Shown here: positions 9,832 to 64,000 of the stretch, one piece after another
Layout of the letters: every line of letters begins with the position of its first letter
Numbering within the stretch: the first letter of the stretch is position 1
Source: a virus
Length of the DNA: 64,000 nt
Direction: 5' to 3' (one strand)
Virus record (IMG/VR): IMGVR_UViG_3300035698_022014
Location: 11,602-75,601 of that record
Notes under the pieces: model-generated
The model's input: only the letters and a program-made list of their open reading frames with translations
The model's database searches: none
What the model was told of the DNA's origin: nothing
Made by a program: the position numbers and the translations under genes

Positions 9832-12126
9832 TTACGTAAATCTTGTTTGATCAGGCGACGTGATTGATCTGATAGGTGGCTCAGGGATGCTGTCACTTTC
9901 AGGAGTAGTACCTTCTAATGGAGGCTCTGCTCCATCAGCCCTTTCACCCACACTGGACGGGTTGTAGTTGAACTGCGGTGCGTCTATTTTCTGCTTGACT
10001 TCAGCAGGTTGAGCGCCACCGTCTGCCAATTGTATAACGTCGTCAATGTATACAATCGGTCCAGCTATATGAACATTGCCTGAACCTGTTAATCTCATTT
10101 CTGAATTGGAAGATGCATTCAATCTCCCACTTCCTGAATCTAGGAACATGGCTGTCGACTTCAATGAAAGTAGTCCACCTGAATTTATGTTTGTTGTTGT
10201 TTTTGCATTGATGAACACATTTGTTTCAGATCCTATAGAGACAAAGCTCTCTGACTTCATTGCAATCGCACTTCCTGAATTGATTCTAAGATTACCCTTC
10301 GACTGCATAGATATTGTTCCTTCGTCAGAATTGAGAAACAAGTTTTGCTTAGGACTGACAAACATGTTACCTTGTGATTTCATATGAATGCTGTCTTGTG
10401 ACTCTACATATACACCTTGGTTGCCTGTTATACTTGTCCACTCCCCACCTATTCTGATATTTTTCGACTTGAAGTTTATTGATTCGCCTGACTCAAACAC
10501 AATGTTTTTTGCTGTCCTGATGCTAATGTTTTCAACATTGGAATCGAATCCTATTGAAGCACTTCTTATGTCTGTTCGATCAGCACCATTGAGTTCAATC
10601 TTCCCTGCACTACCAATCTGTACATTACCGTGAACTATTTGCTTGTAATCGCCTTGGATTTCCTCGACCTTGTTCCCTTTAATTAACGTGTGACAATCGC
10701 CATCGATTGTGACGAGATTGTTTCCTCTTATATACACGTGATGGTTTCGCTCGTGTATATCATACGTGTCGTTGACGTTCTTGTGAGTTGTGCTCGTCGG
10801 TGCTATTTGAATATAGGAACCACTGTGGTGCCATATCATGATTCGTTCTGCACCAGGCGTATCATCGAGCTCAATCGAGTGACCTGATGCTGTCTCAACT
10901 ACTCTGTTATACGGATATTGAGCAGCATATGCAGAAGCTGGTTCTTCCCATGATGTAGTTTCAGCAGGTGTCGGCGGCGTTGTGTTCATGTATCCGCTAT
11001 ACGGATCGTTCGACGCAACTTGACCATCAGGTTGAGGCGTGTCAGTAGGTCCGCCTATAACAGAAGGGTTTTTTCTTTGGTAGTATTTGTTGATGCTGTC
11101 TACAGTAATGGTGCCGTCACTGCCACGCCATCCAGGATTATTGGTCCATGCTTGTCCGCCAACAGGATATACGATAGTGTCGCCTGATCTCGAAGCAAAT
11201 GCTGGTGCAGCTTGCATTATACCTAATCCAGATGTGTTACGATAATTCCACCTTTTTAGATACAGACCATAGGCGCGCAACTGTTCTGCAGGTGTCGAAC
11301 TAGCTATTGATTGGGGCGTGTACTTGGTTCCGTTTCTATTGTTTATGTCTGTCAGTGCATTAGACCCTAGTTGGAAAAACCCTGCATAACCAAACCTATT
11401 AATTACAGACGGATTGTAGGTGCTTTCGCCTGCAATAATTCCATAGACTTGTTCTCTTGATAGACCATATTGACTTTTCAATATCGACAATTCACTTTGA
11501 AACTCTTTGTCATTGTCGAGCGCGTCTATCTTTGCTTGCATATCAGCACCAACAAACGCTGATGAAGTTCCTTGACTATTCTCCGACTCGTTTACATCGT
11601 TGCCCCACAAGTTTCCGTTCCCGACACTACTGTGGTTTCTTATTTTGCCACCTGCTATTGGGATTTCTTTTACGCGATTTGTTTCAAGGGCCTCGTTGTA
11701 TGTCTCGTTTAAAAACTCGCCTGTTGCTAGCTTTGAAACTGGTGACAGTCCTAAATCCCTTGGTCTTGATCCTTGGGCTTGTCTATCATAATTTTCAACA
11801 GGGATTGCGCCCCATCCTGTTGTTGCAGGATCGACCAAAGCAGTGATTTGTGTTGGAATCAGGCCCAACAACATTGGCTGTTGGGCATCTCTACCATCAA
11901 CGAAGAAACCAAACATCCACGCGTTCAGCGGCGGAACAGTGAAGTTCACGTCGTGGCTTCCTATAATCAAGGTGGCCCAAGGCAGATCCTCGGTAGGGAC
12001 GTCACGGTTGGAGCCATGGATTCCAAATGCTCTGACCTGTACTCTACCTTCTGCACGCGGATCTTCGCGATTTTCAACTACACCAATAAAAAACAACGGC
12101 TGAATAAAACCTAAACCTGTATCCAT
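9832..12126 (-). CDS. Baseplate hub/needle gp5 with an internal lysozyme-fold (transglycosylase-like) domain
   Basis: GVVENREDP...GRVQVR OB fold, YPYNRVVETASGH, beta-helix repeats; insert with GESTYNP...GFFQL. Confidence 0.9.
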   Translation of the reverse strand: MDTGLGFIQPLFFIGVVENREDPRAEGRVQVRAFGIHGSNRDVPTEDLPWATLIIGSHDVNFTVPPLNAWMFGFFVDGRDAQQPMLLGLIPTQITALVDPATTGWGAIPVENYDRQAQGSRPRDLGLSPVSKLATGEFLNETYNEALETNRVKEIPIAGGKIRNHSSVGNGNLWGNDVNESENSQGTSSAFVGADMQAKIDALDNDKEFQSELSILKSQYGLSREQVYGIIAGESTYNPSVINRFGYAGFFQLGSNALTDINNRNGTKYTPQSIASSTPAEQLRAYGLYLKRWNYRNTSGLGIMQAAPAFASRSGDTIVYPVGGQAWTNNPGWRGSDGTITVDSINKYYQRKNPSVIGGPTDTPQPDGQVASNDPYSGYMNTTPPTPAETTSWEEPASAYAAQYPYNRVVETASGHSIELDDTPGAERIMIWHHSGSYIQIAPTSTTHKNVNDTYDIHERNHHVYIRGNNLVTIDGDCHTLIKGNKVEEIQGDYKQIVHGNVQIGSAGKIELNGADRTDIRSASIGFDSNVENISIRTAKNIVFESGESINFKSKNIRIGGEWTSITGNQGVYVESQDSIHMKSQGNMFVSPKQNLFLNSDEGTISMQSKGNLRINSGSAIAMKSESFVSIGSETNVFINAKTTTNINSGGLLSLKSTAMFLDSGSGRLNASSNSEMRLTGSGNVHIAGPIVYIDDVIQLADGGAQPAEVKQKIDAPQFNYNPSSVGERADGAEPPLEGTTPESDSIPEPPIRSITSPDQTRFT

Positions 12127-13855: not shown

Positions 13856-14235
13856 TTGATTACATCCTTATAGTAATATACAACATTGTCGGTTGAAGTT
13901 GTGTCCTGACCCCATCGTAGAACATCTATGCCTTCTTTTTTTGATATTTTGGCATACTTGTTGATAAAATATAAGTCGAACTCTTCGTCGGTCATTGGCC
14001 ATTGGGTATATGGATCTACAATGTTATTTGCTAACATCACTAGCCACGTATCATCGACTGATCCGTAATAATAGTACGCTACATCTTCAGCCTTCTCGCC
14101 TTCTCGGACTGTATATGGCAAAAATATGTACGGATCGCGTAGAGTTTCGTCAATCACCTTACTACGTCTTGTAATGTCACGTACCATTTTGCCGTCATAT
14201 CTGATTAACGGATAATTGGAAAAGTATTTAGACAT
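13852..14235 (-). CDS. Baseplate wedge gp53, N-terminal (LysM-like) part
   Basis: YF..YP, YTVREGEKAEDVAYYYYG...W.V..AN.I.DP..QWP. Confidence 0.85.
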   Translation of the reverse strand: MSKYFSNYPLIRYDGKMVRDITRRSKVIDETLRDPYIFLPYTVREGEKAEDVAYYYYGSVDDTWLVMLANNIVDPYTQWPMTDEEFDLYFINKYAKISKKEGIDVLRWGQDTTSTDNVVYYYKDVIK

Positions 14236-15212
14236 TAAATCCCTCCTCTTATTCTGCCTGCTTGGTCAGTACTATTTAAGTTTGTGCTTGTACTTTCTGT
14301 ATCAATGTCAACACTACTACCGCCATAATCTTCTGATGTGTGGATATCCGATTCAATAATATTCATCTGCATCTGAACCACGGCAGGACGTCCACCGCGA
14401 AGTATGGCATTTCCATTGGTTGTAAAGTTAGAGCTGAAGGTTTGAATCATTGCCGTTTTAAAATGGAAGTAGTAATCAGGATCAACCCCTACAAAGAATA
14501 TGTCAACCATCGCAGGATATTTAAACATCGCTCTTTGAATCACAGACGTATTGACGTATTGCGGTAACATGTTTCGCTTTATTGTATCGGATATTTGTTG
14601 CAAGTTTACAGATTCTTGTGAACTCTTTGGAGCCATTGTCCAGTCAAAACTATGTGTCTTCATTTCCACACCGTCGAATGACAGAGCGGCTTTTGGGTTT
14701 ACAAAGGTTCCTGTTCCTGCATCTATGTTTCTGCCTTGATTTGGAAATGCTTGATCGATACCTTTTCTTGCAAGAAAAGCCAGATCCTGAGAGAGCTTTC
14801 CTGCAATCTCACTCGCGTTTGATCCTTGTATGTTCGGCATGCTCTTGAGTGCACTGCTACTAAGAGCGCCTGTTATACTTCCTATTCCTAAGTTGTCTAT
14901 GTCAACTTCAGATATCAAACTTGACACAGTCTCTCCCATAGAACCCTGATCAAAACGTTGTATCCTCACAGCAAACGAGTCGGATATGTTGGCAGGCAAA
15001 GGCAAAAATATTGTGTCTGAAACTGTCGATCCTGCACTCACTAATTGCGAGAAGCCTCTTTCAGAGGATGGACGAAACTGATAATCCCTAAACATCAACA
15101 ACATCCCATAATCATTGTCTTCAATGGGAAAGGAAAGGTTGGTTGACGTTGAGGATTTTGATGCTCTCATTATATCCTGTTTTATAGGTCTGAATCTTTG
15201 TCCGTTAGGCAT
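14235..15212 (-). CDS. Baseplate tail-tube cap gp48
   Basis: IFLPLP, NP....F.G..K.HSF.W...PKS..ES, YP; start moved to the ATG at 15212, downstream of a late promoter. Confidence 0.85.
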   Translation of the reverse strand: MPNGQRFRPIKQDIMRASKSSTSTNLSFPIEDNDYGMLLMFRDYQFRPSSERGFSQLVSAGSTVSDTIFLPLPANISDSFAVRIQRFDQGSMGETVSSLISEVDIDNLGIGSITGALSSSALKSMPNIQGSNASEIAGKLSQDLAFLARKGIDQAFPNQGRNIDAGTGTFVNPKAALSFDGVEMKTHSFDWTMAPKSSQESVNLQQISDTIKRNMLPQYVNTSVIQRAMFKYPAMVDIFFVGVDPDYYFHFKTAMIQTFSSNFTTNGNAILRGGRPAVVQMQMNIIESDIHTSEDYGGSSVDIDTESTSTNLNSTDQAGRIRGGI

Positions 15213-61360: not shown

Positions 61361-61521
61361 GTTTTAGTGGTTGACCAAAAGTATGAATGAGTATAATAGT
61401 AACACTGCGGACATCCAAAAAAAGGAAGTTCGAAACGATAAAATGGTCCTCTTAACAAGGGTCCGACGCTCTTTAAATCTAACCGTACCTTATGATCTTA
61501 GAGAATCTTCTCGATAATAGA

Positions 61522-61631
61522 TTGAAAGCAGGATGTTTGAACAATACATGTTCAAACTCTGCGTGAGGCAAGAATTGGTGCGCTGCTCTTCGGAGTGTGT
61601 GTACACGACGATTGTTGCCTTCTGCTTTCAG
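61522..61631 (+). ncRNA. Candidate structured ncRNA (three-way junction)
   Basis: Closing stem UGAAAGCAG/CUGCUUUCA, a 9-bp hairpin, and a long hairpin capped by cUUCGg. Confidence 0.5.
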
Positions 61632-61754
61632 CTACATTGCCCCCAACCAATAAACAATGTAGCTGAAAACAGAAGAACTCACTACAACATTAGATGTTGA
61701 CATGTTTGGTGTTGTATCGTAAAAAGATGTAGTAATCAAAAAAGAGGCAAAGAG

Positions 61755-61967
61755 ATGAACATGAAGCGAGTCGAAAATGACTGGGTAAAGATTGCCCAAG
61801 AGTCTGTCAGAGTCGAACAAATTGGCGGTGCTGTATATGCTTTTTGTTCCGAAATTGCTGCATTGCGGTTGTTTCATAAGTATCGTGCAACAGATGAGAG
61901 TAAGATTCACGCAAACTACAGTGAAAACCTAAAGACTTGGTTTTTTAGTCTTGAGCTTCGGGATTAA
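61755..61967 (+). CDS. Conserved phage hypothetical protein
   Basis: Y.F.SE.A.LRL..KY...YS.NL..WFF.L. Confidence 0.65.
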   Translation: MNMKRVENDWVKIAQESVRVEQIGGAVYAFCSEIAALRLFHKYRATDESKIHANYSENLKTWFFSLELRD

Positions 61968-62001
61968 GAAATTGTTATGCTGACATTGAAGGAACTAGAC
62001 A

Positions 62002-62217
62002 ATGATTCGGAACAAAATTGAAAATCGTGAAATTATTTTGGACCTCACAGGACCTGACGGCAATGCATACGCTCTAATGGGCTATGCGAGAGACTTTGCA
62101 AAACAACTAGGAATTGATCATGAGCCGATCACAAATGAAATGAAAAGTGGTGATTACGAAAATCTCGTACTTACCTTTGATAGATACTTCGGACGTATCG
62201 TAACTTTGGAGCGTTAA
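62002..62217 (+). CDS. Conserved phage hypothetical protein
   Basis: DLTGPDGNA..LMG, M.SGDYE.L...FD..FG. Confidence 0.75.
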   Translation: MIRNKIENREIILDLTGPDGNAYALMGYARDFAKQLGIDHEPITNEMKSGDYENLVLTFDRYFGRIVTLER

Positions 62218-62218
62218 T

Positions 62219-62383
62219 ATGGATGTTTATGAAACCAACGGCTTTGCGAATCGCAAAGAATATCTAGAATCACTTGGAGAGGAGTATGGCCACATTGTTT
62301 TCGAACTCGCAGATCTTCTAGGTCCAAATGAAGACTTCGACGGATTGGTCACGTCACTAGAAGATTACTGCGAATTGTGCTAA
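62219..62383 (+). CDS. Small acidic conserved phage protein (not in the ORF track)
   Basis: NG..NR.EYL.SL.EEYG...LA..LG..EDFDGLV..LED. Confidence 0.7.
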   Translation: MDVYETNGFANRKEYLESLGEEYGHIVFELADLLGPNEDFDGLVTSLEDYCELC

Positions 62384-62424
62384 TCAACACTAACGAGACT
62401 TTTCAAACTGTTTGAAAATAGCTG

Positions 62425-62453
62425 TTGACAGTAAGTGATAATTAAACTATGCT
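62425..62453 (+). promoter_or_regulatory. Sigma70-type promoter for the tRNA cluster
   Basis: TTGACA-N17-TATGCT. Confidence 0.65.
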
Positions 62454-62570
62454 AGCATTAAGAAACAACATTATTTAAAAATCAATTTATAATCCTTGAA
62501 TTGGAAATTATGTGATCAGGTTGGGTGACGAGCCCGTAATCCCTGATTGACTATTTTATTATACTAACCT

Positions 62571-62654
62571 GGGCAGGTGGCTGAGTGGTCGAAGGCGGGG
62601 GACTGTAAATCCCTTTTGAAAGACGCGGTGGTTCAAATCCATCCCTGCTCACCA
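62571..62654 (+). tRNA. tRNA-Tyr(GTA)
   Basis: Full cloverleaf, GGGGA-CTGTAAA-TCCCT anticodon arm, long variable arm, A73, encoded CCA. Confidence 0.92.
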
Positions 62655-62923
62655 GATACAATACAATACAACAAGAAAAGAGTTATCTCTGCATATAACA
62701 TATTTTGTTAGAGCGGCTTTGCTGCACAAATAATGAAAGTTTATAACTTGTTGTGTTGTTAAAAATTGGTACTGGATTTAATATTCGGTTGAATCGCACA
62801 TAGGCGAAAGCACAGTGTAGAGCCTACCACATTCACGACACTATATTCGAGATGCGGGAACTGCAGATGTCCGACAGCATAGATAAACACATAAACCTGG
62901 TAGTGTCGTGAATAATTAATAAC

Positions 62924-62959
62924 GGACCATTAGCTCAGTTGGTTAGAGCAGCGGACTTA
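62924..62959 (+). pseudogene. tRNA 5' half truncated in the anticodon loop
   Basis: GGACCAT-TA-GCTC-AGTTGGTTA-GAGC-A-GCGGA-CTT, followed directly by the endonuclease leader. Confidence 0.8.
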
Positions 62960-63035
62960 AATCTCTTTTTGTATAAATAATAGCGTGGATCTTGGCATAC
63001 CAAGATCCATCTACTCTAGAATGCAAAAAGAGATT
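62960..63035 (+). promoter_or_regulatory. Late promoter flanked by an anti-RBS pairing (homing endonuclease control region)
   Basis: AATCTCTTTTTG (62960-62971) pairs with CAAAAAGAGATT (63024-63035); TATAAATA at 62972-62979. Confidence 0.75.
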
Positions 63036-63040
63036 CCAAC

Positions 63041-63703
63041 ATGAAACTATTTATATGCTGCCATTGTGGTAGTGAGCGTAAGAATGTAAACTCGTGGAAA
63101 AATCACGAACGAACTTGTCCATCTAATTCAAGCCGAAAATACAAAAATGGTATGACTGGTAAAAAAGGATCTAATCAACATACTAAGGCCAAAGAGTTGG
63201 GCAAACCTAAACCAGAAGTGTCAACAGAAACGCGCAACAAAATTAGAAATTCCAATATTGACCGAAAGCATACTCAGCAAACCAAAGATAAAATATCAAA
63301 GGCAAGATTGAAATACCTTGCTGAAAATCCTGACAAGGTTCCTTACAAATTAAACCATTATAGCAAAGGCCCGTCATATCCTGAAAGATATTGGAAGAAA
63401 GTTTTTGATAAGTTAAGAATTGAATATGTCGAACAATACCGAATACACACCTATCAGTTAGACTTTGCCTTAGTAGAAGAAAAGATTGACATTGAAATAG
63501 ACGGAGAACAGCATTATCAAGACGAAAGAATAGTAAAGAGTGATAAGCGTAGAAACGAATATCTTGAAGGTCTAGGTTGGAAAATAATAAGAATTCGTTG
63601 GTCAGAATATAAAAAGCTGATTGACAAACAAGATAGAATAGCTTATGTTGCTAGAATATTAAACAAAATACGGACGGGTACCCAAGTGGACAAAGGGAAC
63701 TGA
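63041..63703 (+). mobile_element. Free-standing homing endonuclease (zinc finger + NUMOD3-like + DUF559/Vsr-like nuclease)
   Basis: C..C...H...C, KHTQQTKDKIS, YQLDFA...IEIDGEQH...D..R..YL...GW.I.RI.W; the last 10 codons overlap tRNA-Lys. Confidence 0.85.
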
Positions 63704-63755
63704 CTTTTAATCAGTCGCGTAAGCTTCGAGGGTTCGAATCCCTCCCCGTTCACCA
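63672..63755 (+). tRNA. tRNA with Lys(TTT) anticodon on a Tyr-type class II body
   Basis: GGACGGG/CCCGTTC acceptor, ACTGA-CTTTTAA-TCAGT, 12-nt variable region, GAGGG-TTCGAAT-CCCTC, ACCA. Confidence 0.88.
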
Positions 63756-63773
63756 CTTAACAGTTTAAATATT

Positions 63774-63848
63774 GCGCCAGTAGTTCAGTGGTAGAGCATC
63801 TTACTCTCAAACCGCGTGTCCTAGGTTCAAATCCTAGATGGTTCACCA
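63774..63848 (+). pseudogene. Chimeric tRNA-like sequence (nominal CTC anticodon) whose halves do not pair
   Basis: Good D and T arms and CCA, but acceptor GCGCCAG/ATGGTTC has 2 mismatches and anticodon stem TCTTA/ACCGC does not pair. Confidence 0.75.
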
Positions 63849-63894
63849 AAAAATGATATGGGATGATCAAATCCTGTGGTCAATACTAAATAAC

Positions 63895-63981
63895 GGAAGA
63901 TGATTTAATCTGGTGATTAAGACTGATTGCTAATCAAATCGTGGAGAAATCCATGGGGTTCAATTCCTCCTTCTTCCGCCA
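63895..63981 (+). tRNA. tRNA-Ser(GCT), somewhat atypical
   Basis: GGAAGA/TCTTCC acceptor, TGA-TTGCTAA-TCA, long variable arm GTGGA/TCCAT, G73, CCA. Confidence 0.8.
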
Positions 63982-64000
63982 ATAACAAAGTATATTTTGC

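Follow-up and report, generated by a model that had tools for sequence, protein, structure and literature searches.

A long-armed tRNA-Lys(UUU) and a DUF559-type endonuclease gene inserted in a class I tRNA-Lys gene of a T4-like phage

Introduction

In bacteria, a long variable arm belongs by the textbooks to the leucine, serine, tyrosine and selenocysteine tRNAs only. Why, then, does a phage encode a tRNA that has such an arm together with the lysine anticodon UUU, and which amino acid does it carry? The gene in question lies near the end of the IMG/VR virus record IMGVR_UViG_3300035698_022014, in a stretch of 64,000 nucleotides (nt; positions 11,602 to 75,601 of the record), here called the window, which is the final 64 kb of a 75.6-kb contig. 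The contig (CheckV completeness 36%) comes from a T4-like myovirus with genes for topoisomerase II, SbcCD, DNA polymerase, baseplate proteins and a CCA-adding enzyme, and the stretch is found in sequencing runs of lake and salt-lake metagenomes. A sequence-only reading had described the gene as a lysine anticodon on a tRNA-Tyr scaffold, either an identity-switched tRNA-Lys that escapes host nucleases or a mistranslating one, joined to a homing endonuclease gene in one mobile unit.

Two sets of identity elements bear on the question. Lysyl-tRNA synthetase (LysRS) depends on a UUU or CUU anticodon with U35, plus the discriminator A73. The main determinants of bacterial tyrosyl-tRNA synthetase (TyrRS) include A73, U35 and the long variable arm, and also G34. 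From the analysis below, we consider it probable that the gene encodes a lysine-charged class II replacement tRNA, the cargo of a homing cassette of the DUF559 type that kills a class I tRNA-Lys(UUU) gene.

Results

The gene occupies 84 nt on the plus strand, 63672-63755, and is called tRNA-Lys(ttt) by ARAGORN, with its anticodon at 63706-63708. The Rfam tRNA model RF00005 matches it over its full length (1-71) with 57.5 bits (E=3.3e-11, against a gathering score of 29 bits), taking the extra arm as an insertion. All seven pairs of the acceptor stem GGACGGG/CCCGTTC form, including G2-U71. The D arm CCCAAGTGGACAAAGGG has a 3-bp stem (CCC-AAGTGGACAAA-GGG), with U8, A9 and A26 present, and the anticodon arm ACTGA-CTTTTAA-TCAGT presents UUU in a 7-nt loop with U33 and A37. 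The T arm is GAGGG-TTCGAAT-CCCTC, position 73 is A, and the CCA end is encoded in the DNA. The variable region has 12 nt, CGCGTAAGCTTC (C-GC-GUAA-GC-UUC), in which a GC/GC stem is capped by a GTAA tetraloop. Counting as class II a tRNA with a hairpin-capable variable region of at least 10 nt plus a 3-bp D stem, this is a class II tRNA and not a class I tRNA with a variable loop of 4-5 nt. Its CUUUUAA loop and A73 are those of tRNA-Lys, and its anticodon is not the GUA, with G34 or Q34, of bacterial tRNA-Tyr. Logan contigs from three runs of three studies, one run possibly being the window's source sample, show zero differences within the tRNA, so that the TTT anticodon is not a sequencing slip.

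These results agree with the sequence-only reading of a real class II tRNA with UUU, A73 and fully paired stems, on which ARAGORN, Rfam and the sequence concur; it had named a GTA anticodon in the reads as the observation to look for, and the contigs of the three runs carry TTT. The ordinary class II tRNA-Tyr(GUA) that it had placed alongside is also present in the same cluster, at 62571-62654 on the plus strand (Rfam 55.3 bits), and is 63% identical to the class II tRNA-Lys. These two tRNAs are the ARAGORN calls in the window.

Comparison with the locus (L119) of a complete relative (G001, a 208,230-bp record rated 100% complete) shows what surrounds the class II gene. The two sequences align in blastn at about 90.5% nucleotide identity up to 62958 and again from 63809, and between these flanks lie 52 nt in L119 versus 850 nt in the window. 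The inserted cassette, at 62959-63811 on the plus strand with a right end that is ambiguous between 63808 and 63811, comprises a leader, the endonuclease gene, the class II tRNA-Lys and the 5' half of another tRNA. By blastn, the segment 62959-63808 was not found in L118 or L119 and has zero match anywhere in the complete G001. On either side are the halves of the resident class I tRNA-Lys(UUU) gene, both placed by alignment to L119 and both on the plus strand. The orphan 5' half (GGACCAT...GCGGA-CTT, 62924-62958, aligned to L119:14104-14229) ends after nt 34, and the orphan 3' half (CCGC-GTGTC-T arm-ATGGTTC-A-CCA) lies at 63812-63848. The class I tRNA-Lys(UUU) at the same site of L119, GGACCAT...ATGGTTC-A-CCA, is intact and has a 49-nt insert between nt 35 and 36.

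The tRNA half that was carried in with the cassette, detected by Rfam at 63774-63811 on the plus strand (GCGCCAG...TCTTA-CTCTCAA), is unrelated to the resident gene, and an exact search for it, GCGCCAGTAGTTCAGTGGTAGAGCA, in the retrieved loci and IMG/VR gave no match. Its fusion to the lysine 3' half creates a chimeric pseudo-tRNA with the loop CUCUCAA (63774-63848), which marks the right junction and accounts for what would otherwise look like a poor tRNA gene: at 63774-63845 the Rfam tRNA score is only 30.4 bits, the anticodon arm and two acceptor pairs are broken, and ARAGORN makes no call. This chimera is predicted to be non-functional. The resident class I tRNA-Lys(UUU) gene is likewise predicted to be dead in this phage, because the insertion falls in its anticodon loop and costs it U35 and U36. 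Of the tRNA-Lys genes at the locus, only the class II one is still intact. What is new here is a class II tRNA-Lys cassette that lies within, and splits, a class I tRNA-Lys(UUU) gene, a connection that the sequence-only reading does not make.

The cassette is a presence/absence polymorphism, lacking in L118, L119 and G001 and segregating with its empty counterpart in four metagenome studies. In the Logan contigs of four runs, one from each study, the depth is 4.2, 7.5, 6 and 2 over the cassette versus 9.6, 34, 25.7 and 4.5 over the flank, and thus the cassette reaches 22-45% of the flank. A contig of depth 24.9 in run X2 goes on from 62958 with TTAATCCGCGTGTCCTAGGTTCAAATCCTA, the uninterrupted class I loop GCGGA-CUUUUAA-UCCGC, and loose contig ends in runs X1 to X3 run on into the intact class I gene. 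Three alleles therefore exist: an intronless class I gene, a class I gene with the 49-nt insert, and the cassette, in which U35 and U36 of the intronless allele are missing and its U at position 39 is replaced by A. The earlier notion of a single mobile unit is borne out, as endonuclease and tRNA are jointly absent from the complete relative and the block comes and goes as one in metagenomes.

The endonuclease gene, at 63041-63703 on the plus strand, encodes 220 amino acids (aa) with a DUF559/MTES_1575 nuclease domain of the PD-(D/E)XK type, as judged from the list of open reading frames, Pfam and PHROG. Both Pfam matches, PF18741 with 43.5 bits and PF04480 with 42.7 bits, pass their cut-offs, and the PHROG matches are to HNH or homing endonucleases. 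Each of its three relatives (29-37% identity) has tRNA genes of a phage cluster on both sides, and the one with 37% (L133:3001-3615) overlaps a downstream tRNA-Gln by 50 nt and stands 420 nt after a class I tRNA-Lys(UUU). We assign the gene, on sequence grounds, to a family of freestanding endonucleases that dwell in tRNA clusters. The reading frame overlaps the class II tRNA by 32 nt, which confirms the earlier remark that its last 10 codons lie in the tRNA 5' end: these are 10 sense codons plus the TGA stop (63701-63703), which falls in the anticodon stem. As a hint, 5' processing of the tRNA may strip the last 10 codons and the stop from a read-through endonuclease mRNA. A promoter-like site, TTGACA-17-TATGTT, lies in the 3' end of the endonuclease gene, 22 nt 5' of the tRNA (63621-63649, plus strand; 10/12 in a consensus scan); such sites are no commoner in the region than in shuffled sequence, and it is a hint only. 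In the cassette leader, a perfect 10-bp hairpin, TGGATCTTGG-CATA-CCAAGATCCA (62986-63009), stands just 5' of the endonuclease start and has a terminator score on the minus strand only. An endonuclease beside the class II tRNA-Lys of a 318-kb phage (L002) was considered as the same cassette and rejected, since the similarity spans only 30 aa near the catalytic core (E=0.006).

To place the body of the tRNA, we used nhmmer profiles built from phage-encoded tRNAs. The window tRNA scores 30.9 bits on the Tyr profile, 23.7 on Ser, 14.6 on Leu, 33.6 on class I Lys and 58.9 on class II Lys. A BLAST search with its 84 nt against phage records matches only tRNA-Tyr genes and 87-nt "tRNA-Lys" genes of Caulobacter phages, which are class II tRNAs with a CUU anticodon, and tRNA-Tyr is thus the sole canonical tRNA type among the matches. 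The D arm, the variable arm and A73 are all of the Tyr type. The Tyr scaffold of the sequence-only reading therefore stands insofar as Tyr is the closest canonical class II body, and falls insofar as this phage's own tRNA-Tyr is meant. A recent duplication or identity switch of that neighbouring gene was rejected, given the identity of only 63%.

The tRNA belongs instead to a large class II UUU/CUU family. (The counts from the IMG/VR and cellular pattern scans, here and below, are counts among the matches listed, of which only the proportions are comparable.) With the anticodon masked, its 13 nearest relatives are all class II tRNA(UUU/CUU). The closest, L002:13991-14075 in the 318-kb phage, is 81% identical and has an exchanged acceptor (GGACAAG/CTTGTTC) and T stem (GTGGG/CCCAC). 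The phage-wide search for class II tRNA-Lys that had been proposed was run on IMG/VR with a loose pattern (CTTTTAA, 17-30 nt, GGTTCGAATCC); more than 115 contigs are listed, at least 91 of which hold a class II tRNA(UUU) called by ARAGORN. For 94 class II Lys tRNAs (93 viral ones and that of the window), the best canonical class II profile is Ser in 61, Tyr in 28 and Leu in 5. Hence the window tRNA falls in a Tyr-like subset of a heterogeneous family and is no isolated anticodon switch. Other tRNAs at the same loci have long arms as well, namely Asn(GUU) (9/46), Trp (8/34), Thr(UGU) (7/26) and Met (6/52), and in cellular genomes the same pattern finds class II Lys in 10/120 stretches, with 4/10 inside tRNA arrays. 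A full-text literature search turned up no account of a phage tRNA-Lys of class II or with a long variable arm, and variable arms go unmentioned in the PARIS paper (PMC11464382) and in the paper on anticodon-loop evasion. The phage family of long-armed tRNA(UUU/CUU) is large and widespread, and apparently undescribed. Between tRNA-Ile and the class II Lys gene of the 318-kb phage there is also an uncalled tRNA-like gene (L002:13885-13960) with a perfect 7-bp acceptor, A73, CCA, the loop CUUUGAA (UUG, Gln) and an odd D arm.

These family data bear on the alternative that the tRNA has no part in decoding and is hitch-hiking DNA, a decoy or a processing signal for the endonuclease transcript. It does sit in a selfish cassette that also carries a dead tRNA half, and with the endonuclease stop inside it, 5' processing would trim the endonuclease mRNA. 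However, its four stems, the UUU loop with U33 and A37, the T loop and the CCA end are intact. In an alignment of 21 members (the window tRNA and 20 relatives) the cloverleaf is kept, with compensatory changes in 16 of 20 pairs across phages that are 65-81% identical, and the relatives have variable-arm stems of 2-5 bp, often with GNRA caps. Moreover, the family stands in ordinary tRNA arrays at 91 loci. A mere passenger is therefore unlikely.

Which amino acid a decoding tRNA would carry can be approached through the acceptor stem and the codon. The class I tRNA (GGACCAT/ATGGTTC-A) and the class II tRNA that displaced it (GGACGGG/CCCGTTC-A) share G1-C72, G2-U71, A3-U70, C4-G69 and A73. The acceptor begins with GGAC in 13/93 class II Lys, 6/77 class I Lys and 8/911 other phage tRNAs (Fisher p=1.6e-10), a 14-fold enrichment in phage Lys tRNAs of both classes versus other isotypes. 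Of 43 class II Lys tRNAs, 14 find their single best acceptor match in the class I Lys of their own locus, versus 4.6 expected; Tyr was the best match in 2/25 in an earlier count. Both classes also have U73 variants, 21/93 in class II Lys (23%) and 9/77 in class I Lys (12%), with 0/32 in Tyr. The commonest arrangement is a class II UUU gene beside a class I CUU gene (44/91 loci), and class II UUU/CUU twins occur at 7/91. As for the codon, the topoisomerase gene has 28 AAA codons, and 71% of the homologue residues aligned with them are K; columns conserved to at least 90% give 17 K, 1 R and 0 Y. AAA, the fifth commonest codon, means lysine in this phage. No LysRS- or TyrRS-family gene was found in the phage contig or in G001, and charging must therefore fall to host enzymes. 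Most likely, to judge from these sequence features, the class II tRNA reads AAA and AAG and is charged with lysine by the host LysRS.

Against this, a mistranslating or dual-identity tRNA would have its Tyr-like body charged by TyrRS or another arm-reading synthetase and place tyrosine at AAA/AAG. The tRNA keeps A73, U35 and the long variable arm as well as a Tyr-like D arm, its Tyr profile score is on par with that of the phage's genuine tRNA-Tyr (30.9 versus 31.1 bits), and its canonical BLAST matches are to tRNA-Tyr only. But the TyrRS determinant G34 is missing, the acceptor top and A73 are those of the displaced class I tRNA-Lys, and the family's UUU/CUU twins and U73 variants are seen in no tRNA-Tyr of the set. 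So common a codon, found on conserved lysines and never on tyrosine, together with a cassette allele whose share of the population is 22-45% in four studies, is hard to fit with proteome-wide errors from lysine to tyrosine. The mistranslation that the sequence-only reading had offered as an option is thus quite improbable.

That the 850-nt insert as a whole serves as an intron of the class I gene, removed so that both tRNAs are made, is very unlikely. Lak megaphages do have tRNA anticodon loops interrupted by "enigmatic" introns, and one of these may carry a tRNA gene of its own (Devoto et al. 2019, PMC6784885), and L119 has its 49-nt insert at nearly the same anticodon position. Yet the exons of the cassette allele are damaged: with U35 and U36 missing from the flanks and position 39 altered versus the intronless allele, no splice of the flanks restores CUUUUAA. 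The start of the insert has no tRNA-like fold. A group I intron was rejected on the same failure of the exons to rejoin and on the lack of any Intron_gpI match at E<=1 (Rfam, 61500-64000), and the reading of a nested tRNA as an intron was likewise set aside at this locus. In L119, the class I tRNA-Lys(UUU) at 14104-14229 and a tRNA-Asn(GUU) at 14385-14507 are both split between nt 35 and 36, by inserts of 49 and 47 nt that begin with GGA, end with AG and fold as acceptor-plus-T-arm minihelices with a T-loop-like TGCGAAT or TTCGATT; their size is far below what self-splicing requires.

Finally, although the contig ends 150 nt past the cassette in a region rich in tRNA repeats, a chimera stitched together by the assembler is hardly credible: Logan assemblies of four studies reproduce the cassette, a 910-nt contig (62929-63838) spans both junctions and extends 30 nt beyond each, no repeat of 21 nt or more is common to the junctions, and contigs with both alleles and both junctions mark the cassette as biology, not assembly.

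Discussion

The replacement by a lysine-charged class II tRNA, carried as the cargo of a homing cassette, can be put as a sequence of steps. The endonuclease would cut the class I allele in or near the gene, repair from a cassette-bearing donor would bring in the cassette by co-conversion, which is the simplest mechanism, and the cassette would spread by homing. The class II tRNA would then take over the decoding job of the dead class I tRNA-Lys, and its altered body might spare it cleavage of its DNA by the endonuclease, attack by host tRNA-Lys nucleases, or both.

Several points weigh against this explanation. The endonuclease is read as the cause of the insertion from its position only, and its relatives adjoin various tRNAs, with no specific tie to class II Lys. 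With A73, U35 and the long variable arm kept, and a Tyr profile score level with that of a true tRNA-Tyr, some charging with tyrosine may occur. LysRS, a class II synthetase, comes from the variable-arm side of the tRNA and might find a long arm in its way. At a completeness of only 36%, the contig leaves room for further tRNA-Lys genes elsewhere in the phage, and none of the runs that hold the stretch is RNA.

A more specific version, "kill-and-replace", is tentative and to our minds rather doubtful. In it, the endonuclease would cut the DNA of the class I anticodon loop, and the class II tRNA-Lys of the repairing cassette would be immune through its different stems; homing would drive the spread, and the same body would hide the tRNA from host defences that cut tRNA-Lys. 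If true, it would explain why long-armed lysine tRNAs are common in phages.

Whatever drives its spread, a lysine tRNA with a long arm that is common in phages breaks the textbook class II rule and raises the question of how LysRS, modification enzymes and defence nucleases read tRNA shape. The locus is also a natural experiment, with one phage species that has an ordinary tRNA-Lys(UUU) in some genomes and a long-armed tRNA, brought by a homing endonuclease, in others. This allele pair bears on the functional equivalence of the two tRNAs, on the endonuclease target and on protection from nucleases of the PrrC, RloC and AriB types.

The surrounding tRNA cluster reads as a mosaic. The segment 62365-62891, which holds the tRNA-Tyr(GUA), is not common to L119, where 680 unrelated bases (L119:13393-14073) stand instead and include a tRNA-like acceptor-plus-T-arm remnant at about L119:13944-14003. 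A conserved tRNA-like gene of class II, Ser-like in type, lies at 63895-63977 and also at L119:14279-14364; its long variable arm is accompanied by G73, CCA and the loop UUGCUAA (GCU). In this gene 3 of 5 anticodon-stem pairs form, ARAGORN makes no call, and the Rfam tRNA-Sec score is 41.6 bits versus a gathering score of 47. The complete relative further has a T4 Rnl1-type RNA ligase (81 bits) beside a weak Rnl2-like match (25.7 bits, below the cut-off), the ligase loci lying at G001:C1:62860-63282 (L136) and 64398-64886 (L137). These look like equipment for tRNA repair or splicing. T4 Rnl1 mends tRNA-Lys that has been cut by PrrC, and a ligase of this type would fit either pressure on tRNA-Lys in the lineage or the handling of the small inserts.

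Set beside known tRNAs and mobile elements, the class II tRNA-Lys and its cassette combine familiar features in an unfamiliar way. With canonical class I tRNA-Lys(UUU) the window tRNA has in common the CUUUUAA loop, A73 and a T loop of the TTCGAAT type, and with the resident allele an identical acceptor top; it differs in its 12-nt hairpin variable arm, versus 5 nt, and in a 3-bp D stem with a D loop of the class II type, versus a 4-bp GCTC/GAGC arm. With bacterial tRNA-Tyr(GUA) it shares the D-arm pattern CCC-AGTGG-CAAAGGG, the short variable hairpin ending in ...CTTC and A73, but its anticodon is UUU and its relatives often have U73.

Among phage tRNAs that are proposed to evade defence, the nearest parallel comes from T5. 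The cut that AriB of PARIS makes in E. coli tRNA-Lys lies between nt 40 and 41; the class I tRNA-Lys(UUU) of T5, which neutralises AriB, escapes via substitutions in the anticodon stem (Burman et al. 2024, PMC11464382). Both tRNAs are encoded by a phage and unlike the cellular form, and the proposed logic, a tRNA-Lys that a nuclease cannot recognise, would be the same. However, the T5 tRNA is class I with changes in the anticodon stem, whereas the window tRNA is changed in its body architecture, which would be a different route.

The cassette itself resembles the Lak introns in being an anticodon-loop insertion, as do the 47-49-nt inserts in the tRNA-Lys and tRNA-Asn of L119. It differs from them in its damaged exons and its protein gene, which favour a disruptive insertion over an intron. 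Freestanding homing endonucleases are also known from phage tRNA clusters, namely SegB of T4 and the HNH genes of T5. As with these, a nuclease gene stands between tRNA genes, is present or absent between close relatives and has flanking markers carried along with it. Here, however, the nuclease is DUF559/Vsr-like, not GIY-YIG or HNH, and its gene lies within the anticodon loop of a tRNA, carrying a structurally different isoacceptor able to replace that tRNA.

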